A stretch of 64,000 nucleotides of DNA, taken from positions 4,776,001 to 4,840,000 of the forward strand of contig OZ076409.1 of assembly GCA_964187785.1 (NCBI GenBank), given 5' to 3'. A program made the position numbers and the translations under genes. The notes below the pieces were generated by a model, which saw only the letters and a program-made list of their open reading frames with translations, was not told the DNA's origin and searched no databases. This document shows positions 14,422 through 56,771 of this stretch, one piece after another. Each line of letters starts with the position of its first letter. Position 1 is the first letter of the stretch. This DNA is from Amphiscolops sp. MND2022. Its lineage: Eukaryota.

Positions 14422-14717
14422 GACGCGTAAGGTCCACTTTTTGTTCATTTGTCCAACAACTCTGAAACACTCGAACCTCAGAAACGCGTCCAAAACGAAA
14501 AGAAAAAACTAAAAAGACGTCCAGAACCTCGAAAACACACTAATGATCCCATTCCGCACTTTTTTCGGCACTATGCGACTTTTTTTTGAAACTTTTTGGA
14601 TTGCATCAAGGGGTCCCCCTTCATTTGTTTCGATATTTTGCAACACCCTTTTACATTTGTCGGCACTGTGACACTGTTCAAAAATCTCATTAAAAAATTT
14701 TCCCCAAAGGGTCCCCC
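14422..14717 (+). repeat. Left copy of the 296-bp target duplication flanking the Ty3/gypsy element
   Basis: Matches 20591-20885 with 1 substitution and 1 T indel. Confidence 0.95.
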
Positions 14718-17700
14718 TGTTATACGGTTGATCCGATTGACCCCTATTGAGTCCCAACTACAAACTACCACCCAATTCTCTAGCATACCTAAGAATTGTA
14801 TACAAACAAACTCTAAATAGATTACTCTACTCTATACTCATTTTTGGATACGATTTTGAGATAGAACATACGATAAAAAGATTGGGAATAAACACATTAC
14901 TTTTATTTGTTTTCTCATATATCTTACATCAACCTTAGAATAGAACATGGCGCAGTCAGCCGATTTTTAAATTGAACAAACCCTTTTAAAACGGAAAACA
15001 ATGGCCGATAGAAATATCGTCCCAAACCTAGAAACAAAAGCCACAGACGGAAACCCGGTATTTACACCGAGACAATGGCTTGAAAGGTTCCGGCAGTTTT
15101 GTAAACGGGAACACAAAATTGACATTAACCCAATAATGAAAGGAGGAGATATTACGGATGCCGATTGGAACGGAAAAGAACAAGCCGTACAAGAAGATTT
15201 TATATGGGGAGTGGGACCGGAAGCATTATATCAAATAACTAGGGCCGAATATAAAACGGAACCCGACAGCATAAAAGTGAAAGACCTAATCCGGTTATTC
15301 ACCGAATTCTATATGCCGAAAAGAAACACTTACCACAACCGCGGACATTTCTTCTGGGCGAAGCAGACTGAAGATGAGACACCGGAAGAATTCTGGAGAC
15401 GGCTAATCGAAATCGAAAAGGAATGTAACTTCAATGCAATATCAGCCGAAGAACTGTTGATATCAAAATATATGACAGCGATCACCGATAAAAAATTACG
15501 GGACAAAATAATGAAAGAAAAAACGTTGGAACTAAAGAAAGTAATCGAACTGATAAAACAAAACACGTACGAGAAAAAGAATAAAAAGAATACAATACCG
15601 GAAGCTTTGATATCAACAAAAGAAAAACACATAATTAAAGAAGAACCGATCCAAAGAATGGAAAGATTCGGAACAAGACCGAAAAATAAAAACTTCGGGA
15701 ACCGAACATGCAGATTTTGTAATGCTTAAAACTGGACACCAATGCATAAATGCCCCGCATTAGAAGCCAACTGCAACAAATGCGGAAAGAAAGGACATTA
15801 CGCAAAAGTATGCAGACAGAAATTCAACAACAACCGAACGGTGAAAAGACTAACCGAAGAAGAAACAAACGAACCGAACGAATCAACAAGCGACTCAGAC
15901 GTAAGCATTCACCACATAAAAGAAATCAAGAAGATAAACGAAATGAACAAACACTTTACGGCAACAGTACAAATCAACGGAGTAAAGAAGGAATTCATAA
16001 TCGATACCGGATCACCCGTTACAATAATGCCCTCCGACGAAAGAATCATGAAAGCTACCGAAATTCAGAAAATAACAAATAGATACCAAGATGTGAACAA
16101 AAACGAAGTGAAATTCCGGGGAAAAATTCCGGTGAACATAGAATACGAAAACAACAAACAGCAAATGGAAATTTTAATTACCGAGAGAACAGATATAACA
16201 CCACTACTCGGAATGGACTGGATGAAGAAATTCAAACTAACAATCGGAAAAATACAATTGGCCGAGAACAACCAATCAGAACGCGAGAAAGTGTTCACAA
16301 AGTTCCCGGACCTATTTGAAAACAATGAAACAATAAAAGACACCGAAATAAAACTTCAATTGAAACCGGGACACCAACCGATAAAACAGAAAGCCAGACC
16401 GGTACCACTACATCTACAGAAAGATGTAGAACGAGAATTAGAGAGATTAATAAAATTCGGACACTTGGAAAAAGTAAACAATGTAGACGAAGATTGTTTT
16501 GTCTCTCCGGTGGTGATAACCGTAAAAAGTGATAAGTCGGTAAAAATAGCACTGGACTCACGGAAACTAAATGATAGTTGTATCAAGATGAGATCACATA
16601 TGCCGAACATGGAGGAATTACTAAACCAGATTTCGATTGAAATTACCCGTGACCGTACAGCACAGTTATTCATGTCAAAAATTGATTTGGACTACGCATA
16701 CGGACAAATGAAATTATCAGATGAAACCAGCCGACAGTGCGTATTCGCATTAACTGGAGGAAATTTCAGCGGATACTATCGATTTAAAAAGGGATTTTAC
16801 GGATTGGCCGATATCCCCACGATATTTCAAGAAAAGATTGACCGGACACTCGAATACTGTACACCGGCTTGGCTAGACGACATAATCGTGGTAACTCGCG
16901 GAAACAAACAGGACCACGAAGGAAAATTATTCGACATTTTGAATAAATTAGAGAAAGCCGGATATAGAGCGAGTAAAAGAAAGTCCGAATTCTTTTTGAA
17001 CCGAACAAAATGGCTGGGACACGAAATAGATGAGAACGGAATTAAACCGAACGAAGAAAAAATCGAAGCGATACAAAAATTAAATCCACCGAAAAACACA
17101 AAAGAATTAAAATCATTTCTCGGAGCAATACAATATATGGCGAAATTCCTACCGAAACTTTCGGAACGGATAGACCGACTGAGGAAACTTCTGAAAAAAA
17201 TGAACCATGGAATTGGGAAGAAGAAAAACAAAAAGACTTTGAAAAAATAAAACAAATGTTAACCGAAGGACCATGCCTGGCCCATTACGCGAAAGATAAA
17301 GACAATATAGTGACAACAGATGCAAGCACTACCGGTCTCGGAATAACACTTTGGCAAAAACAAGACGACGGAAACACGAAACCGATAGCATACGGTAGTA
17401 GATATTTGAATGAAACCGAAAAGAAATATTCAATCGGTGAATTGGAATTACTAGCGGTAGTATGGGGATTAGAGAAATTCCGATTTTATTTATACGGAAA
17501 GAAAGTATATCTATATACGGATCATCAAGCATTGGAACCACTGAATAAACGAAACCGGTGTAACAAACAATATAGCGCAAGATTAACACGGTGGTTAGAC
17601 CGATTAACACACTTCGACATTTCAATACAACATATCGCCGGCAGCAATTTGAAATTCACCGATTATCTCAGCAGAAATCCGGTAGGGGGAGCAGCACCGG

Positions 17701-20590
17701 AAGAAAATTACGAAGAAGAATACGTAATTAACATATTAACCGAGCACGCCAAATTAAACTTGGAACACGGAAGACTATTCGTCGACCAATCAAAACACGA
17801 TAAACGCAAAACCGAATTACGCAGTGACGCAACCGAAACAAAAGATGAGCGCAACGAAAACCAATCACAAACGAATAGAATATTCGAGAACATAAACAGC
17901 GTGAACAAAACCGAACTCAACAAACCATCTACATCCGGGCAGTCCGAAATTAGCACTTCAAAATCAAGTTACCATTCGTTACAGCAGAACACTGAGAAAA
18001 TGGATAGAGAAAACTTTTATCACTGGGGAGCCACCCGTGAAATCATGAACATTATCAGACGCCGCAACAACAGTCCGGAAACCAAAAGATTGATAGATCA
18101 ACGAAATGCACTATCCCGGCCAGGAACCTTGAGACGCCGGTATGATCATCAAACACAGCGGACAGTATTCGCACCCTCCCGTCCCAACAAAAGAAGCCGC
18201 GAAGAAATTGCAGAAATTGACGCGGAAATCATGAGACGCGCAAATAGACTGGGAGGAGGATACCAACCATTACAGGAAGAACCGGAAGATAATACGGAAG
18301 AGGGCGAAATTAACCAGGAACCAGAAGACACCGAGGAATACAGCGTACTGCTACGCGAAGATAACTTGCCAATAGTAGATCTAAGCAAGTACAACACTGA
18401 CGGGAAGGAGGCAAAATACATCCAGATCAACCACATCGTGGGGAAACTGACAGCTAACAAGAAGATCACGGAGGAGAACATCAAAAAAGCCGAATTCGAG
18501 TTCATGCTGGACTTGAAAACCCTCATCTCAAAGACCGCGACAGACCCTGAACTCACTCATGTACGGAATAGCATGAGACGCGAAGACCGTGAAATCACCC
18601 CGGATGGTTATAAACCGGTTTTCGACAAACTATCAATCAGATGGGGGCTGGTATTTGTGGACGATCAAATAGTGATACCAATTGATCTCCGAAGAAGACT
18701 TTTGGATATTCTCCACTTCGGCCACGCCGGAATGACAAAGATGGAAACCGAGGCCAAAATATTCTGGTGGCCGACAAAGAAGTCCGACATCGAAATGAAA
18801 GTTAAAGACTGCACTGCATGCCTTGCCTCAGGTAAAAATCTCAAATATCAATTACCGAGTAAACACTACGGAAAACTAGGAAAATTAACCGAACCGGGAC
18901 AAGAAATACAAATCGATTTCACCGGATAACTACACAATCAAAAAATACACGGAGACGTACAAATACTAATTGCGGTAGATAGATTCAGTAAATGGCCTAC
19001 CGTAAAAATTTGTAAAACTGCCGAAACAAAAGAAGTGATACAGTTTTTAACAAGTAATTTTAATTTATACGGAATACCGGAGAAAATTAAATCGGATAAA
19101 GGAGGCGCCTTTATCTCAAAAGAATACCGGCAATTTTGCAAAAACCGGAACATAGAAATCGAATATTGTACACCCCGGATACATACGGGAAATGGAGCGG
19201 TGGAACGAGCAATACAGACACTAAAAAATCTAGTGTTAACAAACATGGAAGACGGTAAAAACCTTACCGAAAGTGTAAACCGAGCACTCCGAGTAATGCG
19301 ATTTACCGTACACACCGGACTTAAGAAAACACCATTTGAATTACATCACGGAAGAAAGCCGAGAACCGAATTAACAAACATTGTTAAAGAAGGTAAAACC
19401 TTCCTATCTGATTGGTCAGAACTATCTATTTCAGCACCAATAAGACCGAAGATCCCCATCTACGTGGGTCGAGACGGAGAAGGCGAAATAACAAACCATA
19501 TCATTATGGCACGAAACAAAACGGAAGAGAAGAGACTAGCAGAGGGACCGAAATCACCGAAAAAGAAACATTCGGTTAGCTATCCTTTTAAATTTCGAGA
19601 AAAGAACCATAACAAAAAATCCCTAGAAGGAAAATTTCAAAAGAAAATACAAACCGCAATAAGCGGAACCGAAAACACCGTGAAAACGGATACCGGAAAA
19701 ACCATCAGCCGAAAATTTATTTCGGGCCCATTATTTCAGAATGAAAAAAAGACAAGACGAGAACCGGCACCAATGACAAGCGGTGAAATCTTACCGAAGA
19801 ATAGACACTGCCTCCGTGGACTAGACGGGAAGTATGGCCGCTGGGACGAAATCCTACGGGACATACAAAATGGAAAACTAAAAATAGTACAAAACAGAAA
19901 GATCGACAGCGAGACAGAAGACGAGGATGATGATGAGGACGAAGAAATGCCGGAGGAGACCGGAAACATCACATATGATACATCCGAGCGAAACGGAAGA
20001 TATGCTCCGATACAAACGAATCCGGAAGACGAAGCAATACAAATTCACACCGAGGATGAAATTTCTGGTGAGAATTTAGAACATAACATACGGCGTTCAA
20101 ACCGAAAAACAAATAAACCGAATAGATACGGTGGTTTATCATATACAGGAAACTTTTGGGGATAAACAGAAAATTAATTTTATGTTTTACAGGAAATCCC
20201 TGGAACAGAAGAAAAGAGACGCCACAACCGGAAGTGATCCAAAAGCCGGCAGACTTCCTACAACAGGATCTGGAGACGACACCAATCCGACCATCAACAT
20301 CGGCATCAAAGAACCCTTCCGACAATTAGAAGAGAACCAAAAAGAGGAGAGAGGGGGAAATGTTATACGGTTGATCCGATTGACCCCTATTGAGTCCCAA
20401 CTACAAACTACCACCCAATTGTCTAGCATACCTAAGAGTTGTATACAAACAAACTCTAAATAGATTACTCTACTCTATACTCATTTTTGGATACGATTTT
20501 GAGATAGAACATACGATAAAAAGATTGGGAATAAACACATTACTTTTATTTGTTTTCTCATATATCTTACATCAACCTTAGAATAGAACA
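14718..20590 (+). mobile_element. Full-length Ty3/gypsy LTR retrotransposon
   Basis: 230-bp LTRs 14718-14947 and 20361-20590 (TG...CA, 2 differences). PBS TGGCGCAGTC at 14948 (tRNA-Ser-like). PPT AAAGAGGAGAGAGGGGGAAA before 20361. Domain order gag-PR-RT-RH-INT. Confidence 0.97.
15001..20165 (+). pseudogene. gag-pol polyprotein, disrupted (TAA 15727-15729, frameshift in the A-run near 17195, TAA 18927-18929)
   Basis: Zn knuckle CNKCGKKGHYAKVC; protease IDTGS; RT IDLDYAYGQ...WLDD; RNase H TDAS...ELELLA...YTDH; integrase HHCC, IDF and SDKG...E. Confidence 0.93.
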
Positions 20591-20885
20591 GACGCATAAG
20601 GTCCACTTTTTGTTCATTTGTCCAACAACTCTGAAACACTCGAACCTCAGAAACGCGTCCAAAACGAAAAGAAAAAACTAAAAAGACGTCCAGAACCTCG
20701 AAAACACACTAATGATCCCATTCCGCACTTTTTTCGGCACTATGCGACTTTTTTTGAAACTTTTTGGATTGCATCAAGGGGTCCCCCTTCATTTGTTTCG
20801 ATATTTTGCAACACCCTTTTACATTTGTCGGCACTGTGACACTGTTCAAAAATCTCATTAAAAAATTTTCCCCAAAGGGTCCCCC
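20591..20885 (+). repeat. Right copy of the target duplication
   Basis: Begins immediately after the 3' LTR terminal CA. Confidence 0.95.
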
Positions 20886-40244: not shown

Positions 40245-40245
40245 T

Positions 40246-43200
40246 TGTAACGTCCAGCAAAAGACGTCACAAAAATTCGATGAAATGTGCGATAGCAAAA
40301 TTTCTAAATCAAGATGGCCGACCTGACAGGTACTGGAAATTGAAAAGGATGATGGAAAATAGTGCAAACGACACCCCCACCCAACCCGAGAGAGAACACA
40401 CCGTCACAGAAGTATCCCCGAAATCGCCGTGTTGTGCGATCTCCCTCGGAAGACGTCCCAGCTGCCAGCAGAACCCGAAGAATGGCCCAAGAGATGAAGA
40501 AACTCAGAAGTTCGCATATTTTGCGTGTGCCACCTAGTAGGTCCAAGACCAAGGCTCGCTGACACTGACGCCTGATGTTTTCTGAATCTATTGTACCATA
40601 TTTGCGGTTTTTGTAGGTGTTTGGTGATGTTTTACCCCTTATTTCACCCAGTTTAGACGTTATTCACTAATTGAATGTACTTTGGCTAAACCCCTGTTTT
40701 TGGACCTCGGAGGTATGTAGAAACACGCAGGAACATTAGGAATTGTTTTTACAGGCTTGTGGGACGTGTCCGGACTTTGAGAGAGCCGGCACGTCGCCTC
40801 GGAGCTCTAACTGAGGAGACTCCTTAGACGTATAGGAAAAGTCCCTTTTAGGAGACCATTTTGGGATTAAAAACTAATGTCTAGGTTGTAGTAAGACACT
40901 GGTCTCCTGTTCAAGCAATCTAGGCATTGTCCCACTTCTATGATGTACTCTGCTAGGTGGTTGACGTTACATCTAGAATAGTTTTTATGGCGCCCCACAA
41001 GGGACATTTTTCCATCTTTTCGCCATAATTGGAGTTTTTCCTGCTTTCCGGCCCTGCTAGGTCTAGATCTAGGAAAATTTGTTGGAGAGTCCTAGATTAT
41101 TTTTATTGCCTTAGTCAAGCCTGGTAGGCTTTCTACTAGCTGAATTCCTGCGTTTCCTGCGTATTTCCGAGGTCTGAAACCGAAAATCGACGATTTCAGA
41201 CAGTGTATCCCTTGTATTTTGATAACACCTGTTGAAAATGTTAATCCGGCCTATCCGGAACTGGTTTTAAAGGGTTTTGTAGCTCCGTTTCAGTAAACTA
41301 GCAATGTATGGGGACCGGGAGGACGAGTGCTGAAGGCCCCAATTAGCTGACGACAGTGTGTGAGCACCTCCGACATCACACCTCCAGTACCGCTGTAGTT
41401 GCCGTATACCCACGTCAATCGGGTTATATTGCTAATTCTTGCTAATAATCGGCCCAAAAAGCATATTCCCAGGCCTGTTCCCACTAAAATTAACTAAATT
41501 AACTGGGGAAAATACCCTGTGGGTGTTTGGACCAGTTGATTAAAAATTTGAGCGCGAAAACCTTGAAAACAACACCATATATAGCTCAAATACCGATTTT
41601 TGAGGTGTTGAAAGTTGAAATCTAGTGGAAAAGGATACGGCCAGTGGGAATACGAAAAAAACGTTCCATCGGACCTGCTAGGTCAGGAACAGAAAAATTT
41701 GCTGGGCTAAATTACTGAAACATCAAAAAAATTTAGCAATTTTTGTTTAAAAAACATCAATTTTGGCCTAAAAGAAAAAAAATTTGTGAGGGCGAAGCCT
41801 TGGGCATTTGTTCCCAAGTTTTAAGATCAGCCCAAAAACGTTGTTCCTGAGCTTGGTAGTACGAAACACTACTGTCAAGACAAATTTTAGCACCCCCCAA
41901 TAAAAATTGAAACTTTAACCCTTGATTTTCTTTTGTTATATATAGACCTGAGTAGAGGACCACGTAGACCTGAGCGTTATAAAAACCTAACTAATAATTG
42001 AAACAACCCCAGTCCCCTCAATAAAGTTGTCACACTTTCTAACACTACTATTAGAACCATTCGGAACGTCTGAGAACCGAGAAACAAAAAGTTCCTAGGG
42101 AAAATACGTATTTTCAGTACTGTCCCGAGAGTGTCAAAGGTGCAACTTGAAAGTTATTTTGAGAGACCTTATTTGGAACCTGCCAGGTTTCGCTCGCCTA
42201 TTTTCCGTTAGTATAGGGTATAACGTTGCAAACGCGGAAAACTGCGAGTAATTCCAACCAGTAGTTGCTGAAAAATAGTCGAAAACGCGTTGTTTTTGCG
42301 ACATTTTCGGAACACTGGAGTAGTGTCCCCAAGATAGGTCGAAATCTCTCCTGATAGGAGTAGCTCAAAACAGATTGCACCATCGTATAGATCATAAAAA
42401 GTTACGTTGGTGGTGTAATTGTCGTAGTGCTACCACTACTGGTGATTGAGAAATCTAAGCCGCAGTTTTGCTCAAAAATTGTACGAAACTGTCAAAAAAA
42501 AATCGAATTTTAGTTGAGCGTAGTGCAATACCTTCGGAGTATCCCAGCACTAAAATTCTTGCATTTTCGTACACACAGCACTAGATCCCGACGATTTGTG
42601 CATTTTGAGCAGCTTGCTACTGTCCAATTTGGAGAAATTGACATTTTTGTGAATTTTGGCCCCAGGAAGTGACTAATAGGGTACATCATAGTTTTGTCAA
42701 CTCGGATTGCGGAATATTGACCTGGGCACCCCGCTATTTTGTTTTTCTGTTACGTGGGCCTAATTCATGCTCGCATACAAAATTTCAGGTAGCTAGGAAG
42801 CCTAGAAGGCGAGTTTGACAGACTTTTGTAAATTTCACAACATAGTCGATTCTTCAAACAACATTCTGAAGCAACCCCAAGTCACGTATAATCAATTTTG
42901 GCGCAATCGGCGGTGATTTTCCCACGATTTGGTCACAATAGTATACCGTGTTAATTTTTCAGGTCGCTAGTAGCTCTAGAAGTGATTTTCACCTTCCCCA
43001 GGCGTGCATTTTGGCGTAGGAATTGCCGATTTTGAGAAATTTTGCGAAAAATTATACACTTTTCGTAGGTGTAGTTGCAAGTGAAGGTTTAAACGACCCT
43101 AGTTCTACACCAGACATTCATAGCACGTCCCATTGAAGTAATCAGAATGGAGCTAGCTCAACCCTAAAATCTTGGGTTTGTCAAAAAGCTGTCTACGAGA

Positions 43201-45329
43201 CATAGGAGTGCAAAACACAAAAATTGCATTTTCTCTCCCAACGGCCACCAGGGTCACCTAAGTGTGAACTGATAGGTGCATTCACGTTTGCCTCGACTGA
43301 GAAGTGACGCGAGAGAGCTAGAACGCAATTAGGAGTTCTCTAGGAGACGTGGATAGTGGACGCGGTGCGTCTCGAGACAGAAAATTGAGTAAATTTGAAA
43401 TTGTAAAGAACTGTATTTCCATTGATCGTGCTACGATCGTAAGGCAAGAAAGCACTTCAAACTCAGTGTTCATTGTCCTACTCATCCCCGAGGTCTACCC
43501 CTAGTCCCTAATAACATTTTTGTTTTTACTTGTGCTCTCCAGAAACAGGGCAGCATGAGTGACGAAACGACTTTTCAGACAATCTAACGTCTGTAGCCAA
43601 GCAGGCTTCTCAAAAAATCAATGTTCGTTGCTTGATTCATGCCTAAGGTGAACCTCGGTACTCGGTACCACAGTTGCATGAACCATATCGATGTGAAAAC
43701 ACCGGACAAGAGATTGGCCCGGGGAGCACCTGTACTCTGCCGAAAGGAATCAACACCAAGCATGATAAAACACCTGGAGTTTCGAAGCTCTGAGAACTGC
43801 TTGGCCTGCGGCCGTGCTTTTAGAACTCGAATGATTGCTCTGAAACTTGTTTTTGAAGCCAAAGACTGTTTTCATTGTTTTAATGATCCACTATACCTGA
43901 TTTTTTAACTTCCCTTGGTCATAGTCTATCATCGCTATCGACATAATCATCCTCTTGAGAAGCAGTTTATTTCCATCTTTTACATATACACTTGTGCCTA
44001 TATTACCTACACAACACCTTTATCTGAGCGTACACTGCTAACTCAATAGATTGAATGGGTCCTCGCTTTTGATGATATTTTTGAATTTTTGGGATCTATT
44101 TCTCTATTTGTGCTTTTTATTGTGCAGTTTCTGTTGGCCATAAACTACGACACTTTTGCAAGACCACAGCCATTACTTTTACTCTTCGCTTTTCTAGTGC
44201 TATCGTGCATTTTGTACAACCTAACCTATCAGGTGGGACCGAGATTGATGCCAATCCTGTTGTGATGAGTGCTTTTTATGCAGATGCAAAAAGGTGCTAG
44301 AAATTTTGAAATCTTGGTGCGAAATTAAAAGTTTGAAAATGTTTTGAATAAAAGGCTAAGTGTCTAAAGTTGCTAACGCTATTCCAGCGCTAGAACCCAT
44401 TGTTGGTGTGGAATCCAAGGAAATCTGCCAGGCTGGCAAAAACTCGTGTTTTTGGGCAATAACATGTTCTTGGGCAATGACTTCCATTTAGATTCCTGAA
44501 GTACCATGTCACAACTGCATCACTGGATCACTGGATGATGGCAACCAAGACGTGAACGTCCACTTTCGTTTGTCGAGGACGACAAACTACGGCCCGGGGA
44601 GGATGTAACGTCCAGCAAAAGACGTCACAAAAATTCGATGAAATGTGCGATAGTAAAATTTCTAAATCAAGATGGCCGACCTGACAGGTACTGGAAATTG
44701 AAAAGGATGATGGAAAATAGTGCAAACGACACCCCCACCCAACCCGAGAGAGAACACACCGTCACAGAAGTATCCCCGAAATCGCCGTGTTGTGCCATCT
44801 CCCTCGGAAGACGTCCCAGCTGCCAGCAGAACCCAAAGAATGGCCCAAGAGATGAAGAAACTCAGAAGTTCGCATATTTTGCGTGTGCCACCTAGTAGGT
44901 CCAAGACCAAGGCTCGCTGACACTGACGCCTGATGTTTTCTGAATCTATTGTACCATATTTGCGGTTTTTGTAGGTGTTTGGTGATGTTTTACCCCTTAT
45001 TTCACCCAGTTTAGACGTTATTCACTAATTGAATGTACTTTGGCTAAACCCCTGTTTTTGGACCTCGGAGGTATGTAGAAACACGCAGGAACATTAAGAA
45101 TTGTTTTTACAGGCTTGTGGGACGTGTCCGGACTTTGAGAGAGCCGGCACGTCGCCTCGGAGCTCTAACTGAGGAGACTCCTTAGACGTATAGGAAAAGT
45201 CTCTTTTAGGAGACCATTTTGGGATTAAAAACTAATGTCTAGGTTGTAGTAAGACACTGGTCTCCTGTTCAAGCAATCTAGGCATTGTCCCACTTCTATG
45301 ATGTACTCTGCTAGGTGGTTGACGTTACA
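40246..45329 (+). mobile_element. Non-autonomous LTR element (LARD-like), no gag/pol
   Basis: 726-bp LTRs 40246-40971 and 44604-45329 (TGTAACGTC...GACGTTACA, about 5 differences). tRNA-Lys-like PBS TGGCGCCCCACAAGGGAC at 40988-41005. PPT GGGGAGGA before 44604. Confidence 0.92.
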
Positions 45330-45423
45330 CTTTCGACGCCCAAAAACGATCTATAGAAATCGAAACTCTATAGTTATCTTTAGTCACTATCGGCCAAACG
45401 TTTTCATACAAAACCTCTAGATA
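45330..45423 (+). repeat. Right copy of the 94-bp target duplication
   Basis: Starts immediately after the terminal CA. Confidence 0.95.
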
Positions 45424-45477
45424 AACATTCTGGTTCACATGGATGGTTCTCCTGTTTTTTTCGATGAATCAGAATTG

Positions 45478-45806: not shown

Positions 45807-47783
45807 CAGAATTGTCCCAGAACTTGATCAAAAAGTAGCCCAACCCAGAACATGGCTTTCTGCTTGCCACTGTCCAGACTTTCCCCATGCTCAGAGAAGC
45901 TTAACACTCAACCATGTGCATGTGCGTGAGCTTTGTGACCTGCTATCCGGCTGGAGAACCCACCTGTTTTCATCCAAGAACATGACGGTCTCGCGCAAAT
46001 TGAGAGTCCTGGCTCAAGAGACCAGTATGAAATTGGCACCATATCATCTATTTCACCACCCAGGTACAACTTGTTGGGAATCCCCCCTCCCAACAACACG
46101 AAAGCACTTTTTGTTCTTGAATAAAAAATATTTCCCTGATAAGAGAATATTATATGAATGTATATACTTAGAGGATTGTCTCTACAACTGTTTGGACACT
46201 TCAGGTTAAAAAATTACCATAATTTTATGATATTATTGTCCAACATAGCAGAAATTCACGTTTGAAACAAACTAAAATCGTATAAATTGGTCCCTAATGT
46301 TTTGATATTATTGTCCAAAATAGCAGAAAATCACGCTTGGAACAAGCTAAAATTGTATAAATTGATTATGTCGACATCAATAATTTTATTGGATCAAAAT
46401 TTCAACGCAAACGACGTCGACATAATGGTATTTGAACCTTCTGTCTTAATTCCCCCCTTCCTGCCGCAGTTTGGGGGGAATAGATGACATGGTCCCGAAA
46501 TTGATCCCTGAATTCAAATTTTGGAGGATCAATGCAATACACTTTCGTAGTTTTTTATGGTTTGAAGTTTTTGGCATGGCTAAGCTCGCGTGGCCTTTTG
46601 ATGTGGTCGGGTTATTTTCAAAGAATGATGTGGTTCTCACTCGCATGATGAAAAGATTGCTTTGGTTTTCCAACCTTTAATGTGATGGGACAAAGTTCAG
46701 AAAACTGTTCAAACCCTTTGGAAATCCCGAGGTGGACCTTTTGTTGCTTGTCTCCCAGTTTTTTTGGCATGAAACGTCTGGCTAAAAATACTTCTGGCTA
46801 AAAAATCTTCACACTTGTAAGGGAGTGTCTTCTGCCGTTCCAAAGAATAAAAGTCTCAACTGTTTATCAGTAAAGTTTCAAGAGCGGTTTGAAAGTCTCT
46901 TTGATAAAGCAAAAGTAATAGTGTTCGGAGAATAAAGAAAACTGGAGATATTATCAAACAAGCATCCAGTGGAAGAGATTAATCTCATGTGGTAAAATTT
47001 ATGTATTTCTCCAACATGCACTTGAAGTTTCAAATTATTGATCCTTCTAGATATTCTTTCTGGAAGATTTCGTTTTGTCCACGAACATCCCGTACTTATG
47101 AGCTACAATCCTACTACTATGGAACTAATACGATTTGAAAAACAGCAGTTACGGAACTTATCAAAAAACAGAAAAAAAACTTGTTGAAAGTTGACACTGC
47201 TACGAAAACGGGAAGTCTTGAAATAAAAGTAATCGTTATGAAACGAAACAAACATGTCTAAATTTTCGCCTTTTGCACTGTTGAAATACTATCACCAAAG
47301 GCTGATTGTATTTTAATTTTCTTTGTTGTCGTGAAATTTTACGCGGAAAAAAACTTTTTTGTACCACAATCACAAACATCGGAAAAACTTGAGATTTGTG
47401 GAATGATTTAGTTTGTTCTCAATGTTATTCTTTCAGATTTGAGAAACCGACAAAAACTGCTTTATATATCTCTTTTTCTAATGAATCATGAATGTCCAAA
47501 CGTATAGACAGACAAAATGTACAGTCAAAAGAAGAGAACAAAAAAATAAAGGAACTAAGACGAAGCAAATAAAAAGCGAATGAAAACAAAGACACAAACG
47601 AAATAGAAATGAATGGCTCGGAGTGAGTCTCACCGGCTGTGGTCTGAATACTTCCTTCATTGCTAAAAGGGTGATTTCTCGCCACAAATTGTCAAACCAA
47701 GTCGGTCAATTCTGTTAATCTCCCGTCTAACAATCATTGTTCGATCCTAGTCGACAGGCAGTGTGTTCTAGTCACGTTCCTTA

Positions 47784-48467
47784 TAGTAGCGTTCTAAAAT
47801 ATCACAAATTAACATTGCCCAAAATTGCAAAATTCAAATCCAAATATCTTGAAAACTGTCACAAATACTAAAAATTGTCAGCTACGAAAGTTTCTTAGAA
47901 TTTTATCTAGCTTACAAAAATGTTTGTTTGAAATTTCTATGACGCTTACTGAGAACGTTAGAAAATGCAAATTTTAAGAAATTTTAATAGAAATTTGAGT
48001 TGTTTTTGGAAATTGAATAGCTTAGAATTAAAATTTTTGGATTGTTTTTTCATTCGGAGACTCCTTATAATCTCCCGAACCTACTGAATTGTTTTGGTCG
48101 AGAATTTTCTTCGAATCAGAAAAAATTAAAGTACATATATTAAGATAAGCTATAAGAATTGCATTTAGAAAATTGATGACTTTTATTTGAAATCGAAAAA
48201 TTTTCACCAAAAAGTTCCAAAATTATTTTTTAAACTTAGCGAAAATCAAGAAAAAATGCATATTTGATGAAATTTTGTCAAAATTTACAATTTCTAACTT
48301 TTGTATTTTTTTGCAGAAATTTCAAACAAGCATTTTTGTAAACTAGATAAAATTTTAAGAAACTTTCCTAGCTGGCAAATTTTTGTATTCGTGACAGTTC
48401 ACGAGATATTTGGTTTTGAATTTTGCCATTTTATGCAATGAGGTTGCGATATTTTAGAACGTTACTG
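47784..48467. mobile_element. Tc1/mariner-type MITE with long TIRs and TA TSD
   Basis: TAGTAGCGTTCTAAAATATC / GATATTTTAGAACGTTACTG flanked by TA; empty site in the duplicate near 51409. Confidence 0.85.
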
Positions 48468-49538
48468 TATTTCGTCGTAGGATGGTATGTTTTTTCACGT
48501 TCCCCCTGTTCATGTAACAGAATATTCGGGAAATGAAGATTAGCCATTTCGTACCAACTAAGATTGGCAATTGTTCTGAATTTATGAAAACTGTTATACA
48601 TGGGTTTAGGAATGAAAAGAACTAGGGTATGAAAAATTGATCAATTGATGTGGTTTAATGGTAGTTGATGTTGTGACAAAGAGGGCGTTGGGTTTTTGTA
48701 AATTTTTGTGGTCAATGAAGCATCATGCTATTTCAGTGTCTGGTTAAAGTTGGTGTACTGGTATTTTCTCAAATCCTGATTAGCACCATCTGCATCAAGT
48801 GCTAAACCGCAGTTATTAGACATTTTCAATCTATAGCGCAATCTAGCAGGTTACTGGTATTATTGCTTAAACGACGCTCTGGCATTCACAGCATCAACCC
48901 GTTATTTTCCGCCCACATATAATGGGGGAGGAAAATCATTATCTGTGTTGCGTTTTTTTCCAAATTCTGCCGAATGTCCGCGGTCTCCTTCAGCTTAGTT
49001 GACTATATTAAATACTTGACTAATTTAGTTACTGGTAATTAAGGCTGTTTGATTCATTAGTAATTACTACACTGGAAGAATAGCTCAACCGAATTAAGAT
49101 TAAATAGCCGAAGTTAGTTTAGATCGAAACGGCGGACGGTTGAAAAAGCTATTGGTTGAAATTGTGAGCGGTTGAAATGGCAACGGATGAAATTGCATAG
49201 GTTGAAAGTGTATAGGACGAAATGTCCTGAAACGAGTTTAGCGCATTTGACCTTTAGCAGGTTACTTTGAAACCGCAACTGCGAGCGTCTTTTGTTAGAC
49301 CATTCTGTTTTTTCAATACTGTACCAATTTGTACCAATTTATGCCTCCGATTTTTGACCTTTTCAGAATCACACTTTGAAACTAACCTTGCTCTTTCATC
49401 TTCGACAAGATGCTCAATCTTTTATCCAGTAAAAGTTTAGAACAGATCTAAAAACATGAAATTTGAGTTGCCAAATTACCTAACTTAAAAAATGTGACTT
49501 CAGAAAGAAACAAAAATTGTTTTTTCCTCTAAAAATTA

Positions 49539-49698
49539 TCATTGTGGGGAGTTTTTGCGGAATCGGGCAGAACAGGAAATTTTGAAAGATTTGGGTTGGT
49601 TGGATATGTCTTCATTTTCTGGGTTCTGGGAATTGAGGGAGGCCAGGAACTGTTGTTCTTCCTGTCTTTGAACGAGTCTGCACTGTGAATTGGTCCAT
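49539..49698 (-). pseudogene. Truncated duplicate of the Rab last exon (RLVQRQEEQQFLASLNSQNPENEDISNQPKSFKISCSARFRKNSPQ)
   Basis: Direct similarity to 56511-56669; lacks the acceptor; CC changed to CS. Confidence 0.85.
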
Positions 49699-50734
49699 AT
49701 TTTTTTCCAGTATTGTATTTGTACCACATTTAAAATACCCATATCTGCTGTCGCCCTAATTATGCGTTAGGGATTTAAACCAGGTTTATTATATAAAAGT
49801 TCGATGCTACTAGTTAATGTTGCTGTTGAAGTTAATCCAATCCGACGTCATTATTACGTTGAACCATATTTACTCTAATTTGGATACAATAATTATGTGT
49901 GCTAATCATTTTAATAAGGCTAAATTATCAAAAGATTGATCCATCTTATTCTCCTAGCATCTCTAAATATTCCCAGCAAGCGAGATTTGTTTTATTTTCT
50001 TCGAGTAAAAATTCAAAATCACTCCAGCGTCATCTCAGCGTCAATTTTTCTACGAACCAAAGCAGTAAAACAGGGAAACATTTCCGGTTTGACAGACTGA
50101 AGTAATATCTACTTCCTGCTTGGGAGGAAGCAAAAGGACGCCGGGATGAAATAATACACGCGCAAATTTCGGATCATAATGATTGTTTCATCGAAAAAAC
50201 AGGAAGTGACAAATTGTTCGAGAGAAATAGGGGATTTAGTCGTGATCAAATGATACTAGGAGGGTATAAATACGATGATATTCCATGGATAAGGGACTCA
50301 GTCTTTTGCATTCGTAAAACTCAGTTGCGCTATAATTCACTTATCTCAGCCTATTCCTTCATTTTTGTTTAAAATATATAGCAAAGACAAATTGAATTAT
50401 CCAAACAAAACTTTCTTCATTCAAAGTGTCGACTACAAGAAGCCAAAAGAGAAAGAACAATCAGCAGGAGAGCACCGAAAGTGTTAGTGAAGTTTCTGTT
50501 TCACCGATAATGGTAGAAAATTCTTGTCCATTAGACCAGGACGTAGCCGTTGCGGGACCTTCGAAGCCGAAATCCCCTAGGATCGAAAATAGCTTCTGGA
50601 AAAGTTTGAGGGCTTCTTTGAAAGAAGAAATCATATCTGAAATTAGGAATCTTCTCGTTGAATCTCAGAAAGAGATGAAGAAACTGCTACGATCAACTCT
50701 ACTCAAAACAACGACCTGTGTGGTAGTCGTAACA
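49699..50734 (+). mobile_element. LTR remnant ending ...AGTCGTAACA, containing a gag-like N-terminal ORF (50426 onward)
   Basis: TATAAA at 50265, Inr-like TCAGTC at 50298, ORF STTRSQKRK...SLRASLKEEIISEIRNLL, terminal CA at 50734. The left end is unclear. Confidence 0.55.
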
Positions 50735-52366
50735 CCTACTACTATGGAACTAATACGATTTGAAAAAGAGCAGTTACGGAACTTTTCAAAAAACAGAAAA
50801 ACTAAACTTGTTGAAAGTTGACACTGTTACGAGAACGGGAAGTCTTGAAATAGTAGTAATCGTTATGAAACGAAACAATCATGTCTAAATTTTCGCCTTT
50901 TGCACTGTTGAAATACTATCACCAAAGGCTGATTGTATTTTAATTTTCTTTGTTGTCGTGAAATTTTACGCGGAAAAAAACTTTTTTGTACCACAATCAC
51001 AAACATCGGAAAAACTTGAGATTTGTGGAATGATTTAGTTTGTTCTCAATGGTATTCTTTCAGATTTGAGAAACCGACAAAAACTGCTTTATATAACTCT
51101 TTTTCTAATGAATCATGAATGTTCAAACGTGTAGAAAGACAAAATGTACAGTCAAAAGAAGAGAACAAAAAAAATAAAGGAAGTAAGACGAAGCAAATAA
51201 AAAGCGAATGAAAACAAAGACACAAACGAAATAGAAATGAATGGCTCGGAGTGAGTCTCACCGGCTGTGGTCTGACTACTCCCTTCATTGCTAAAAGGGA
51301 GATTTCTGGCCACAAATTGTCAAACCAAGTCGGTCAATTCTGTTAATCTCCCGTCTAACAATCATTGTTCGATCCTAGTCGACATGTAGTGTGTTCTAGT
51401 CAGTTTCCTGATTTCGTCGTACGATGGTATGTTTTTTCACGTTTCCCCAGTTCATGTAACAGAATATTCGGGGAATGAAGATTAGCCATTTCGTACCAAC
51501 TAGGATTGGCAATCTTGGTTCTGAATTTATGAAAACTGTTACATGGGTTTAGGAATGAAAAGAACTAGGATATGAAAAATTGATGAATTGACGTGGTTTA
51601 ATGGTAGTTGATGTTGTGATAAAGAGGGCATTGGGTATTTGTAAAGGTTTGCAGTCAGCGAAGCATCTTCCTATTCCAGTGTCTGGTTAAAGTAGGTGTA
51701 CTGGTATTTTCTCAAATCCCCATTAGCACCATCTGCATCAAGTGCTTTCAATCTAAAGCGCTATCTAGCAATGGTTACTGATATGCTTGCTTGAAGGAGT
51801 CACCGTATCAACCTTGTTTATAATGATGATGTAATCATTCATCACTTTTTGAAGCCATGATGGGTACGGCGTAGTTTTGCAAATGGGATGTATCGAAATT
51901 TTGAAATACCCTGGATATAAAAACTACACTGTGTGCAAAAACTATTCAGTATCATGATATACTGAGAATTAGATGTTTTGCTTTGAATTTCAACTATAGC
52001 CTCAAGAAATGGCTTTTTCAAAAGTTGTGTTTGGGGCGTAACCAGTACCGAAGATCTGTCTAATCATGATTGTTAGCCCCTAAGCATATCATTCATCTAT
52101 AGCTTAGTTTAACGCATTTCACCTTTAACAAGTTACTTTTAAAACCACAGCTGCGAGCGTCTTTTGCTAGACCATTCGGATTTTCAAATACAGTGGTGAA
52201 AATAAAGATCGAATCTAGCTTAAACGTTTGTCAGCCCAATTGTTTCGTTGTTGTTTGTCATTCAGAAAAGTACTAATTAATATAAAACTTTGACAGCACA
52301 TTACGACGAAAGCGTTGCTACATGACTTCTACCGTAGTTTTGCTCGATCTTGTCCATTGGACAGAA

Positions 52367-52462
<96 letters not shown>
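52367..52462. repeat. (AAT)32 microsatellite = LINE 3' tail
   Basis: Perfect repeat about 70 bp beyond the ORF2 stop. Confidence 0.95.
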
Positions 52463-52463
<1 letters not shown>

Positions 52464-52533
52464 GGTTTTTCCCGAAGGAGGGGACAGGGTCCCAGAATTC
52501 CACAGGTTCTCCTTAAAGTTGTCCGGCTTTCGC

Positions 52534-55374
52534 CTAACTCGTCATTTTCCACGTCGACTTTATATGATAATTGTAGGAATTGGCAAAATATTCTTTGAAA
52601 ACTTTGGTAAGATCTTCTTTAATTGTGGGAGATAGTAGGTCAATGTCTTTCTTGGTCGCTTGGTGAATCGCAATAGACCGGTACCAAAAATTTTGTCTAC
52701 TTGAAGATAATCGCAGTTTCGGTAGTACAAATAATTCGGACTCGGCAGCTCTCGTTCTTTTATCTGAAGGGAGAAAACGTACCTTCGGCTCCCAGTCATA
52801 GTTGTACTTGTCATTGACTATACGACTCAAGAGAAGGATATCATGTAACTCAATGTATAGCGAGATTGGTAATAAATTCAGGCGGTGTAGTCTCATTTTG
52901 TAATCTGGCTCATGGTCGATCCATTTCGTAACGCGTGCCTGAAACAATTCTAAAGCAGAAAGCGAATTGGTATTTGCATGGCTAACTTGCATGCCATAAG
53001 TTAAAATTGGGACTAATAAACCACGATATAAGTTCATTTTCGCTCCTTTGGATGTTCTCGGGGAAACATTTCTTCTGATCATGTGAAACATGCTATAGGC
53101 TTTAGAAACTCTACTTTTAATATGTTCGCTCCAATTCAGATTGTCACAGATGATAACTCCCAGGTCCTTTTCACATTGTTTTCTCTCAAAAACGGAATTT
53201 CCAAACAAAAAGGGTCCCTGGTCTTTGCCCTTGAATAGCAGATAACCGCATTTACTAATATTGGCGCTCATTCTGTTGGAATTACACCATTCAAGGATAT
53301 GTCTCAAGGATAATTGGAGATTTTGATGGTCGTCAGAATATAGTTTTAGGTCATCAGCGAATAATTTGGAATCCACGCTCAAGTTTTTAACTACATCATT
53401 GATGTAAGTGACAAACATTAGTGGTCCCAGCAGCGACCCTTGGGGGACACCACTTGTGGCGTATTTGTAATCCGACAAACTGCTGTTTACTCTAACTCTT
53501 TGCCTTCTGTTACTAAGGTAATCCCTAAGTATGTCATGTAGACCCCCCTGAATCCCAGCTGACCATAGCTTCCGTAAAAGGATGTTGTGGCAAATTTTAT
53601 CAAAGGCTTTTTCGAAATCGATGTATATTGTCGCAAAGTAAGAAATATCCTGATTTTCTCTAGCTCGGTAGATATCGTCCACATAGTCCAAAAGTTGAAG
53701 AACGGCAGATTTGTTTCTAGAAAAGCCGTACTGAGAAGAATTTATATCATCCTTGACGTGTGCATATATGGCATCGTATAGTATGCGTTCGTAGACCTTC
53801 GATATCGTGCAAAGGAGCGCCACTGGGCGATACATTTCAACGCAGCTCTTATCACCCTTTTTGAACAGCGGAACTATTGTGGCATCTTTCCATGCTGACG
53901 GGAATTTGTGCTTATTTGCAGCGGTCCTCAGGAGTAGGTAAATTGACGGGGCTAAAGATTCGGCACACTTTTTGAGGAAAATATTCGGAATATTGTCTGG
54001 TCCACGTGATTTGTTCACGTTTAAATTAGACAGTATTTTAACAATATCGCGCACGCTGAAGTGTATACTGCTGGTTATAATCCTTGGTTCAGTATTTACC
54101 AATTCATCGGATTCCAAAAATTGGGTAGCAATGTTATACACACTTGCGAACCAATTGTTAAATAAATTCGCTTTGTCAGTATCAGTTTGGACTTGCTTGT
54201 CTCTATAGTGCATAACTGAGGGGAGTCTGTCAGGTGATTTGATTTCTTTGATATAGCGGTAAATTTTGTCAAAACGTCTTGACCTAAACACATTTTCCTC
54301 GTAATCTAATTGATCTATACTTGTCATCTCCTTGATAGTTGTAAGCAGGTTTAGAATTTTGCACGATCTGGCATACGAAAAGTTTCGTAACTGTTTTGAT
54401 TCCATTGATTTCATTTTCCTTATAACGCATGAAGTTTCTGGTTTTATCCATGCTGGTAAAGAAGATCGGTGCTTGGTGCGTTTGGGAATGGTTTGTTTGT
54501 GAATTTCATCTAACCAAGTGTACCATTGCTCAGTAAGAACATCCACATTACTATAACAGTACGGAGTAAAAGGGTTTGATAATATATAATCGTTTACGGA
54601 TGGAAAGTCCGCTTTTGAGTAAGAGTAGCAATTGAGTTTGGCGTGGGGTGTTGGGTCATAATAGGCCTCGAACGTCATGGAATAGGGATAATGGTTGCTC
54701 AGTGGTTTATCGTCAATGGCAAACGATTTATGCATAGTAAGATTTATCTTACACAGGGTCACAAATTCTGGGCTGTTCGTGAGAATGACCTGGAGTGAAT
54801 TTCCAGATGAGTCTTCATGAATCATTTGCTCGAAATTGTAGTAGACAAGTAAATCCAATATTTCCGATTCAAAGTTATCAGAAGACTCCATCACATACCA
54901 ATTGGTAAATTCAAAGTTTATATCTCCGGTGATAATTACGTGCTCTATGTTATTGCTATTCTTCAGATTATCTATATTCACAAGGAAGTCCGTGAATTTT
55001 TGTAATGACCATTTATAGGGACTATTGGCTGGGGCTGAGTAGATTGATGCAATTAAAATCTTTGTATCATCGAGATCGATTTGCACACAGGCACAATCGT
55101 CATTGGCTACATTTGGAAGTTGTATTTCTTTAGAGATAAGCCGCTTCGACAACGCAATTAACGTACCTCCGTGACTTGTTTTATCGCCCGATTTGGATGG
55201 TCGGTCGCCTCTGAATACATTGAACTGGTTTAAGAATAACGAATTGTTTGAGATTGCTGAGGTAAGCCATGTTTCTGATAAACAAACGATATCAATGTCC
55301 TGTAGCGCTAATGAGTTGGCTAATGTCTGTCTTCGTGTAATATCTAGAATGCTCCGGACATTATAAATTAGCAC
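52534..55374 (-). CDS. LINE ORF2: AP endonuclease plus reverse transcriptase, intact 946 codons
   Basis: YNVRS, LSETWL, GDIN, SNH (APE); KSRGPDNI, IDFEKAFD, GVPQGSLLGP, FADD (RT). Confidence 0.96.
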   Translation of the reverse strand: MLIYNVRSILDITRRQTLANSLALQDIDIVCLSETWLTSAISNNSLFLNQFNVFRGDRPSKSGDKTSHGGTLIALSKRLISKEIQLPNVANDDCACVQIDLDDTKILIASIYSAPANSPYKWSLQKFTDFLVNIDNLKNSNNIEHVIITGDINFEFTNWYVMESSDNFESEILDLLVYYNFEQMIHEDSSGNSLQVILTNSPEFVTLCKINLTMHKSFAIDDKPLSNHYPYSMTFEAYYDPTPHAKLNCYSYSKADFPSVNDYILSNPFTPYCYSNVDVLTEQWYTWLDEIHKQTIPKRTKHRSSLPAWIKPETSCVIRKMKSMESKQLRNFSYARSCKILNLLTTIKEMTSIDQLDYEENVFRSRRFDKIYRYIKEIKSPDRLPSVMHYRDKQVQTDTDKANLFNNWFASVYNIATQFLESDELVNTEPRIITSSIHFSVRDIVKILSNLNVNKSRGPDNIPNIFLKKCAESLAPSIYLLLRTAANKHKFPSAWKDATIVPLFKKGDKSCVEMYRPVALLCTISKVYERILYDAIYAHVKDDINSSQYGFSRNKSAVLQLLDYVDDIYRARENQDISYFATIYIDFEKAFDKICHNILLRKLWSAGIQGGLHDILRDYLSNRRQRVRVNSSLSDYKYATSGVPQGSLLGPLMFVTYINDVVKNLSVDSKLFADDLKLYSDDHQNLQLSLRHILEWCNSNRMSANISKCGYLLFKGKDQGPFLFGNSVFERKQCEKDLGVIICDNLNWSEHIKSRVSKAYSMFHMIRRNVSPRTSKGAKMNLYRGLLVPILTYGMQVSHANTNSLSALELFQARVTKWIDHEPDYKMRLHRLNLLPISLYIELHDILLLSRIVNDKYNYDWEPKVRFLPSDKRTRAAESELFVLPKLRLSSSRQNFWYRSIAIHQATKKDIDLLSPTIKEDLTKVFKEYFANSYNYHIKSTWKMTS

Positions 55375-55434
55375 GTGGATTATTCGTTTAATACGTTGAT
55401 CGCCGAGATACCTCGGTGAGATACCCGAATGTAG

Positions 55435-55629
55435 TCAATTGTCCGTTTGATTCACGTTTTCAGAATCGGTGTATTTGACAACAACCCATTTTTCGTCGAT
55501 ACGCTGGTGAAGTTCCAATCCTTTGATTTTCAAATTTCTTGGATCAATGCCGTCTGTAATCAGTTTGCGTCGTTTGACTACCGCATCATGTTCTTTTTTG
55601 GCGTCTTCTTTGCTCAGTTCAGGACTCAA
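55435..55629 (-). CDS. LINE ORF1 C-terminal fragment
   Basis: Directly upstream of, and in frame with, ORF2. Confidence 0.6.
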   Translation of the reverse strand: MSPELSKEDAKKEHDAVVKRRKLITDGIDPRNLKIKGLELHQRIDEKWVVVKYTDSENVNQTDN

Positions 55630-55658
55630 ATGATATCCGACAAATTTTTAACCAAACA

Positions 55659-56198
55659 AACAAGAAGCTGGGAACGGCCAAAGTCGGCGCTATATCCAAG
55701 GCTCAAAATTGTTAAAGGGGGGACCTTTTGGGCTTTGTGAAACTCTAGTTTATGAAACAAAATGAAGGGAGACTTTACAAAATTTCCGAAAAAAATTTAA
55801 AAGTGAGATTTTGAACAGTGTCACAGTGCCGAAAAATGTAAAAGAGGGACACTTTTGGATATTTTGACATCCATTGTGTTGCAAAATATCGAAACAAATG
55901 AAGGGGAGACACTTTGGTGCAATCCAAAAAATTTCAAAAAAAGTCGCATGGTGCCGAAAAAAATCCGAGTGAAAAACACCAAAGGGGGGATCCTTAGTAT
56001 GTTTTCTGTTTTCTAGGCTCGGGATGTCAATGTTTTCGTTTTGGACGAGGTTTTGGCGTTTCTAGTATGTTTCAGACGTCCGTAGTTCAAGTTGATGTTG
56101 TTGAACAAATGAACAAAAAAGTGGACCTTACGCGTTTAAAAAAACTACTAACTGTAAGAGTCGGGCACATTTTCTACTAAAATGCGCCGACTTAAAAC
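55659..56198 (-). mobile_element. HINE-like repeat copy
   Basis: AAGTCGGCGC...GCGCCGACTT termini. Confidence 0.7.
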
Positions 56199-56510
56199 GC
56201 CTTTGAATTTATGAGTTTTTTATCCGGGAATAGATGTAAAAAAACACAGAATTTACTTTTGGTTCGATCTTTATTTTCAATAATGTATTGTATAAATTGT
56301 TGCCTCTAATTTTTGACTTTTTCGTTCACACTGTGAAATAGGAAAAATAAACTCTTTCTTATTCGACAAGATGCTCAATCTTTTCTCCAGTAAAAATTTA
56401 GAACGGATCTAAGACTTTATTTTTGAATTGTCAAATTAACTAACTTAAAAAATGTGACTTCGGATAGAGACATTGACAAAAACGGTTACTGTTTTTTCTT
56501 CTAAAAATTA

Positions 56511-56771
56511 TCATTGTGGGGCGTTTTTGCGGAATCGGGCACAACAGGAAGTTTTGAAAGATTTGGGCTGGTTGGATATGTCGACATTTTCTGGGTTCTG
56601 GGAATTGAGGGAGGCGAGGAATTGTTGTTCTTCCTGTCTTTGAATGAGTCTGTAGGTGAATTGGTCCATGCACTGTTTAACGTTGCTCCCGGTGAAGGAG
56701 CTGACCTCTGTGAAGGAAAAATCCGTGTTTGTTCCCAGAGTTGATTTCACCAAGTCAGCTTCCAATTCCAC
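56511..56771 (-). CDS. Rab-family GTPase terminal exon (G5-like EVSS; ...TSCCARFRKNAPQ*)
   Basis: CAG acceptor; phase 0; in frame with upstream exons. Confidence 0.85.
   Translation of the reverse strand: MELEADLVKSTLGTNTDFSFTEVSSFTGSNVKQCMDQFTYRLIQRQEEQQFLASLNSQNPENVDISNQPKSFKTSCCARFRKNAPQ

Follow-up and report, generated by a model that had tools for sequence, protein, structure and literature searches.

Long duplications of flanking DNA at retroelements in an Amphiscolops genome are consistent with one-ended insertion completed by host repair

How does a retroelement come to lie between two long copies of the same host DNA? We asked this question about a 64,000-nucleotide stretch of the genome of Amphiscolops sp. 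MND2022 (contig OZ076409.1, positions 4,776,001-4,840,000, of assembly GCA_964187785.1, which comprises 1.07 Gb in 1929 contigs), hereafter called the window. Its G+C content is ~32-44% and transposon copies are abundant in it. A previous, sequence-only reading of the window had described three elements that end in CA, with a second copy of the left-hand DNA directly behind each of them (94 bp, about 296 bp and kilobase-scale), and had assigned them to three families of long terminal repeat (LTR) elements whose two ends may have been joined to the chromosome at widely spaced sites. We checked the structures by self-BLAST of the window, a repeat finder and printing of the junction sequence, and ran a Pfam domain search on the open reading frames of the window. 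All three duplications were confirmed (positions below count from the first base of the window, and the parts of the three elements are given on the forward strand). The best explanation as a whole, to which we would assign a probability of roughly 0.55, is that each duplication arose in a single event: integrase attached one end of the element, and the flank was copied before host repair secured the other end.

The first of the three, element 1 (14718-20590), is a true Ty3/gypsy LTR retrotransposon, with paired TG..CA LTRs, a primer-binding site, a polypurine tract and the domain order of that group. Its 5' LTR (14718..14947, 230 bp, TGTTA...GAACA) and its 3' LTR (20361..20590, ending in CA) show 2 differences in 230 positions. 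Abutting the 5' LTR is the sequence TGGCGCAGTCAGCC (14948..14961), which we take to be the tRNA-complementary primer site, and the polypurine tract AAAAAGAGGAGAGAGGGGGAAA (20339..20360) abuts the 3' LTR. The coding region between them (14971..20165) contains four open frames according to the open-reading-frame list and Pfam: an unassigned frame of 252 aa, one with protease and reverse transcriptase, one with RNase H and the integrase zinc domain, and one with the integrase core. The Pfam matches (aspartyl protease, RVT_1, RT_RNaseH, Integrase_H2C2 and rve, along 15730-20165) follow the order protease, reverse transcriptase, RNase H, integrase, and the reading frames are interrupted. In a comparison with protein clusters, the frame with RNase H and integrase matched generic retrotransposon clusters only, from plants, arthropods and oomycetes. 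The 296 bp to the left of the element (14422..14717) return on its right (20591..20885), where the sequence beginning at 14422 directly adjoins the terminal CA of the 3' LTR (20589-20590); the two flank copies show 2 differences in 296 positions. An ~85-bp piece of a dispersed repeat sits inside the left copy. We also considered a tyrosine-recombinase element with split direct repeats and rejected it, as element 1 has a DDE integrase (rve), ordinary LTRs, a primer-binding site and a polypurine tract. A homology between primer site and target like that used by the Tf1 element was likewise set aside: the likeness of the flank GACGCA to GGCGCA in the primer site is explained equally well by a CpG transition, and comparison of flank and primer site revealed no such similarity in the other long-duplication cases described below.

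Element 2 (40246-45329) is also a true LTR retrotransposon, non-autonomous or decayed. The 5' LTR (40246..40971, 726 bp, with the terminal inverted repeats TGTAACG...CGTTACA) is 99.3% identical to the 3' LTR (44604..45329, ending in CA), a TGGCGCCCC motif lies 16 nt past the 5' LTR, a purine run precedes the 3' LTR, and the internal region (40972..44603) has no open frame of at least 150 aa in the open-reading-frame list. Here the duplicated flank is 94 bp long: the left copy (40151..40244) is identical at 94/94 positions to the right copy (45330..45423), which begins right after the CA of the 3' LTR. Between the left copy and the 5' LTR stands one extra T (40245..40245), for which the right copy has an A at the equivalent position, and this T is either a filler base or a substitution. 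A larger local duplication around the element (39200-39658 versus 45475-45806, 88% similarity) proved to be a dispersed repeat that is also present at another locus (L026).

Is the third element of the same kind? Element 3 (49699..50734) is a non-coding dispersed repeat that starts with ATTTTT and has the constant 3' end ...GTAGTCGTAACA (GTAACA). It separates a left copy, A (47110..49698, about 2.6 kb), from a right copy, A' (50735..56669), and the two boundaries of the duplication fall at the element ends. The matching blocks are 47110-47781 with 50735-51409 (96%), 48462-48803 with 51405-51746 (91%), 49235-49319 with 52106-52191 (85%) and 49329-49698 with 56288-56669 (84%), so that overall identity between A and A' ranges from 96% to 82%. 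Two pieces of A (47110-47781 and 49235-49698) were searched against the 1.07-Gb genome and were matched elsewhere only in A'. Copy A holds an inverted-repeat element (47785-48466) whose empty site is present in A', and A' holds a long interspersed nuclear element (LINE; 52192-56287, minus strand, with an open frame of 966 aa at 52534-55434 that has apurinic-type endonuclease and reverse-transcriptase domains) whose empty site is present in A. Because each copy later gained its own transposon while the other kept the empty site, the duplication is real and old.

With respect to its class, element 3 does not bear out the claim of three LTR families, which holds for elements 1 and 2 with their paired TG..CA LTRs, primer sites and polypurine tracts. 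No LTR pair, TG start or inverted terminus was found in the window copy or in the other copies of the family (family 3) that we inspected, there was no coding signal, and a TGTTAC terminus was absent from ~13 kb of family 3 loci. Pfam gave no match for the open frames of element 3, of family 3 or of the duplication, and the open-reading-frame lists of two family 3 loci pointed to no class. Other family 3 copies match element 3 from end to end with the same 3' end and reach at least 400 bp further in the 5' direction; judged by alignment with three of these copies, element 3 is 5'-truncated. A direct pair of family 3 sequences on another contig, which we considered as a possible LTR pair, is simply a tandem duplication of 1791 bp at 99.8% identity, flanking DNA included. 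This pair (L099+L081+L098, G000:C13:23251200-23256000, minus strand) covers the last ~1.24 kb of a family 3 element plus ~547 bp of the flank downstream of it, and it mimics the arrangement flank-element-flank, yet a further copy of the element stands to its left. The sequence-only reading had also supposed that gene fragments would be among the duplicated DNA; none were found, the search by Pfam having covered the open frames of a single flank, the duplication around element 3.

Do long duplications recur elsewhere in this genome? To answer this we used other copies of the element 1 family (family 1) and of the element 2 family (family 2). First-look candidates numbered about 120-1400 in 1.07 Gb for family 1 (at least 40 LTR copies scored) and >4000 for family 2. 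The family 1 sample consisted of 38 other copies, which were the best-scoring matches with both ends pairable, and the family 2 sample of 23 other copies. Four copies of a family 1 subfamily and four family 2 copies, for which the partner LTR end lay outside the retrieved stretch, were excluded from the denominators. Left flanks of 800-1900 bp were retrieved, and duplications beyond that length would escape detection.

In family 1, 30 of the 34 determinable copies carried a 5-bp target duplication, one was part of a tandem array and three (8.8%) had long flank duplications of about 330, 537 and 604 bp, located at three other chromosome positions. The expected recurrence was thus borne out for the Ty3/gypsy family. 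The first batch of 15 copies contributed 12 with 5 bp (one mismatched), the tandem array (L011, in which neighbouring elements share an LTR) and two of the long cases (L019, 537 bp; L023, 604 bp); the second contributed 12 of 13 with 5 bp (two mismatched) and the third long case (L050/L051/L058, about 330 bp, below called L050); the third, a subfamily at 84% identity, contributed six of 10 with 5 bp, its other four having the 3' LTR outside the retrieved stretch. The exact interval for the frequency of long duplications, 2-28%, was computed for 3 of 28 copies, before the six subfamily copies joined. Two family 1 copies had peculiar structures together with a normal 5-bp target duplication: L015 (G000:C10:34504657-34514363) has an internal ~100-bp duplication in one LTR, and in L115 (reverse strand) a 26-bp fragment patterned as the start of a family 1 LTR lies 13 bp past the 3' LTR.

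In family 2, a 3-bp target duplication was present in 17 of the 19 determinable copies (5 of 5, 5 of 10 and 7 of 8 copies in three batches, from which none, three and one copies were excluded), and a clean long duplication in 0/19. Of the remainder, L071 is preceded by element-internal sequence and hence is part of a tandem array, and L067/L068 is ambiguous. We considered the latter as a long duplication and left it uncounted: its flanks share a dispersed repeat at 94%, and the similarity stops 11-12 bases from each junction. For this family, then, the result lies close to the one that the sequence-only reading had named as telling against it, namely that the same families nearly always have short duplications elsewhere. 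Tandem arrays in which elements share one LTR occur in both families, recognized by a 3' LTR followed by a primer-binding site or by a polypurine tract before a 5' LTR; they were found at L011 and L071 and, from the spacing of matches, at G000:C1:37699001/37703700 and G000:C10:19025207/19029905/19036066.

Long duplications thus recur, but as a minority (about 9% in one family) and not as the rule, and with canonical short duplications in 30/34 and 17/19 copies the description of such events as frequent or routine was not sustained. As most copies are canonical, the integrase system works, and the long cases are exceptions to its usual outcome. Among the 53 determinable copies of the two families there was none that had neither a short nor a long duplication, which fits a route biased towards duplication.

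Next, we asked what the junctions reveal about how the two ends were joined. The five LTR cases come from two families, their duplications measure 94, 296, about 330, 537 and 604 bp, and each element retains its two LTR termini in full. In 5/5 the junction at one end is exact and the irregularity is at the other end, as filler of 1-8 nt or microhomology of 2-3 nt. The exact junction is at the 3' LTR in element 2, L019 and L023, whose 5'-LTR junctions carry an extra T, an extra GT and an extra GTAAAAAA (8 nt), respectively; the first six bases of GTAAAAAA copy flank sequence located 9 nt upstream. Conversely, the exact junction is at the 5' LTR in element 1 and L050. At the 3'-LTR junction of element 1, 2 nt (CA) are common to the LTR end and to the host DNA just before the duplicated stretch, which begins at 14422, and at that of L050, 3 nt (ACA) are shared, with the terminal LTR base now a T. 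The chance probability of at least 2 nt of microhomology at two of the five right junctions is ~0.03. The one-base and two-base signs are each weak individually, and together with the others they suggest that one junction per case is host-made. In all six cases, element 3 included, the boundaries of the duplication agree with the element ends either exactly or with an offset of up to 8 bases, and near-identical repeats of 94-600 bp placed exactly against both ends of an element are beyond chance.

These features make it quite probable that each case represents a single insertion, with the element ends joined 94 bp to about 2.6 kb apart and the interval between them copied. For the specific route, a one-ended integrase join followed by host repair, we see about an even chance. 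It would proceed as follows: integrase (for element 3, whatever joins its 3' end) would attach one end only; the free chromosomal 3' end at the nick would be lengthened by tens to thousands of bases, with the intact strand or the sister chromatid as template; host end-joining would then link the other element end to the extended DNA, with filler or microhomology; and fill-in synthesis would finish the second flank copy. Element 3, with its exact 3' end, its truncated 5' end and a kilobase-scale duplication, fits the same logic whatever its class.

Could integrase have joined both ends? Fully uncoupled integration, in which both LTR ends are joined with normal polarity but at targets separated by hundreds of bases, the interval then being duplicated by gap repair, would retain the normal geometry, only stretched, and it is in keeping with the complete TG..CA termini of all five LTR cases and with the lack of extra bases at either junction of element 1 and L050. 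However, strand transfer adds no bases, whereas additional bases (1, 2 or 8) are present in three of the five cases and are locally templated in one of them. Random polarity also predicts deletions as often as duplications, and 0/53 were seen, though selection against deletions could hide them; the 5' truncation of element 3 would be left unexplained as well. Because each case has one exact and one irregular junction, we favour the one-ended version over two integrase joins, which we regard as rather unlikely. The earlier proposal of uncoupled integration is thus retained in one part, as widely spaced joins in one event fit the data better than the rival explanations do, and given up in the other, as the filler or microhomology in each case does not suit two clean integrase joins.

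Alternatively, two elements of the same family might have inserted, on homologues or sister chromatids, on either side of the stretch that is now duplicated (from here on A in any of the cases), and an unequal crossover within the element might then have produced A-element-A and a reciprocal deletion. If so, the two LTRs of an element would derive from different insertions, and the age of LTRs and flanks should reflect this. The LTRs of L019 and L023 are indeed more diverged than their flanks (LTR 6/228 versus flank 4/537 differences, and 7/230 versus 5/604), as if they came from different insertions. In element 1, however, the two are about equal (2/230 versus 2/296), in L050 the order is reversed (3/229 versus 11/331), and in the four family 1 cases pooled LTR and flank divergence do not differ (18/917 versus 22/1768, p = 0.18), as expected for a joint origin. 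We also looked for shared LTR variants as a sign of two source elements: at all but one site, the differences between the LTRs of the long-duplication elements are private, with the derived state in 0-1 of 30 other LTRs, and those in normal copies are private too, so that the crossover gains no support from them. The tandem arrays with shared LTRs (L011, L071 and those seen in match spacing) show that exchange between elements or recombination of complementary DNA (cDNA) does occur, and the LTR fragment 13 bp from the complete element in L115 also speaks for this reading. Yet the crossover needs two insertions in the same orientation within 94-604 bp of each other at five unrelated sites, in families of hundreds to a few thousand copies per Gb, and apart from the tandem L011 and the 26-bp fragment no second LTR of the same family, let alone a full one, was found in the 1.0-1.9-kb flanks of the 38 other family 1 loci. 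It also leaves the filler bases at the junctions unexplained. We therefore consider this explanation improbable. The duplicated flanks, compared among the cases, are mutually unrelated, so there is no shared hot spot.

Is the second flank copy real? The genome is in 1929 contigs and the copies are known from the assembly, which leaves room for an assembly artefact in which the organism has a single copy of A. In that event, however, the junction between the LTR end and the start of A would occur in no read. Moreover, the flank copies have diverged by 0.7-3.3%, indels included, A and A' of element 3 carry separate later transposons, and 47 loci in the same assembly have clean short duplications. 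An artefact is accordingly very unlikely. Equally unlikely is an ordinary tandem duplication, with A either doubled beforehand, so that the element landed at the joint, or copied afterwards. Such duplications do exist in this genome: the window contains a 1857-bp unit in two copies (22245-24101 and 24102-25958, 97.9% identity, GTA microhomology), and the 1791-bp unit on the other contig (99.8%) comprises part of a family 3 element and its flank. But an element that landed at a joint already in place would have produced a 3- or 5-bp duplication of its own, and none is present, while the boundaries match the element ends closely in all six cases; and a later duplication would leave a copy of the element to the left of A, and there is none in the window or at L019 and L023.

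The repeats of the window that lie outside the three elements include those just mentioned. Each 1857-bp unit of 22245-25958 consists of a whole Tc1/mariner-like element with 65 and 265 bp of flank; the element has 41-bp inverted ends (22310-22350 and 23797-23836) and a DDE_3 open frame (22898-23506). A tandem array of ~163-bp units (3-4 copies, 66-95% identity) occupies 12002-12590. Both strands carry copies of a short dispersed repeat, whose core is GGCGCCGACTT..CCGGCTTG, at 10596-10656, 20927-21000, 31748-31808, 33820-33880, 55656-55716, 58199-58259, 60221-60294, 61803-61876 and 62467-62540, and it also forms both flanks of L067/L068.

Several points weigh against one-ended integration completed by host repair as the common origin of these structures. 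No clean long duplication was seen in the 19 determinable copies of family 2, and a genome-wide occurrence is thus not supported. The sample is restricted to copies with both ends identifiable, and the flank length of 800-1900 bp limits what could be detected. The greater divergence of the LTR pairs than of the flanks in L019 and L023 could mean that the flank copies postdate the insertion. All five LTR elements keep complete termini, whereas in the retroviral experiments discussed below the host-joined end was often truncated. Filler is missing from both junctions of element 1 and of L050, and microhomology of 2-3 nt is weak evidence; the single T of element 2 could be a substitution. Finally, the structures are read from a single assembly.

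If one-ended insertion with host repair is nevertheless what happened, long target duplications show that a natural half-way failure of integration can leave a heritable insertion. Each event duplicates host DNA in tandem, which provides raw material for novel exons or additional regulatory sequences and a substrate for later deletion by recombination. There is a practical side as well, since LTR-finding pipelines that demand a 4-6-bp duplication would discard such copies or set their boundaries wrongly. A broader proposal, which we offer only tentatively and regard as doubtful, is that half-completed insertions are common in this genome (~1/10 in one Ty3/gypsy family) and are nearly always resolved as duplications through a bias of host repair. 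Were this true, local tandem duplications of 0.1-2.6 kb would arise regularly from retroelements belonging to more than one class, and the bias would lie in long extension of the nicked chromosome end before end joining, which would also yield the plain, microhomology-bounded tandem duplications on the kilobase scale that the window and other parts of the genome contain. A rate near 9% in one family would be several times the ~1% inferred for the human endogenous retrovirus HERV-K, and this genome would then be well suited as a natural system in which to ask which repair pathway completes one-ended insertions.

How do these duplications compare with those of known systems? In paired-nickase experiments in plants and animal cells, opposite-strand nicks with a long 5' overhang give rise to tandem duplications. 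The geometry is the same, with interruptions tens to hundreds of bases apart that are filled in and joined; no mobile element takes part there, and the likeness is one of analogy only. Among natural LTR elements, long target-site duplications at HERV-K (HML-2) were reportedly described by Mamedov and colleagues in 2004, as relayed by the text and reference list of the 2017 paper of Kahyo and colleagues. In that later work, HERV-K (HML-2) LTRs were found with duplications of 61-450 bp, ~6 of 451 inferred duplications (1.3%), and for two of them, of 111 and 250 bp, pre-integration alleles prove a true target duplication (Kahyo et al. 2017, PMC5488345). In one case two bases separate the duplication from the LTR (PMC5488345). 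These HERV-K copies resemble ours in being natural, fixed or polymorphic LTR elements with long duplications and, in that case, two filler-like bases, and they differ in belonging to a betaretrovirus-like primate endogenous retrovirus and in their rate (6/451 compared to 3/34 in family 1; p = 0.012 for 3/28, before the six subfamily copies were added). An analysis of junction asymmetry does not feature in the passages of PMC5488345 that concern us here.

The closest mechanistic parallel is found in vectors of HIV-1 and of avian sarcoma-leukosis virus (ASLV), where, according to the relevant passages of Varadarajan et al. (2016, PMC5041404), one-ended integration has one end joined by integrase and the other by host enzymes. 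In the aberrant events host DNA was most commonly duplicated, with hundreds to thousands of bp copied rather than 5 bp, with short homology or added sequence at the aberrant junction and often a truncated aberrant end; their rate was 0/99 with the wild type and 7-25% with weakened integrase (PMC5041404). The elements studied here share with these events one normal junction and a long flank duplication, and the 3/34 of family 1 is similar to the rate of 7-25%. In contrast to our material, the viral events took place in cell culture with mutant integrase, mutated ends or inhibitors, and they also gave deletions, inversions and foreign inserts (PMC5041404), whereas here we observed duplications only, in germline-fixed, complete-ended copies of Ty3/gypsy type.

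Can element 3 and the tandem arrays be compared to known systems in the same way? Very long target duplications are described for the non-LTR elements R9 of bdelloid rotifers (126 bp) and Dualen of Chlamydomonas in passages of PMC9977147, and they resemble element 3 in having an exact 3' end and a duplication length set by the second-strand cut or join. The R9 and Dualen duplications are, however, family-specific, regular and tied to particular endonucleases (PMC9977147), while element 3 is likened to them from one copy and is unclassified. The Tf1 retrotransposon is capable of integrase-independent insertion by single-strand annealing (Li et al. 2022, PMC11042837), in which host recombination inserts LTR cDNA and gives tandem elements sharing one LTR, like those seen here at L011 and L071. 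Unlike the cases studied here, that pathway draws on target homology to the primer-binding site or to the polypurine tract, and the pertinent passages of PMC11042837 do not describe long flank duplications. The literature consulted, which did not extend to the supplements (Table S4 of PMC5488345 and the provirus tables of PMC5041404), listed no Ty3/gypsy family in which long duplications reach a similar rate. Thus, the kind of event is already known from other systems, and the novelty may lie in how often it occurs in a Ty3/gypsy family and in the one-sided junction signature of fixed copies.

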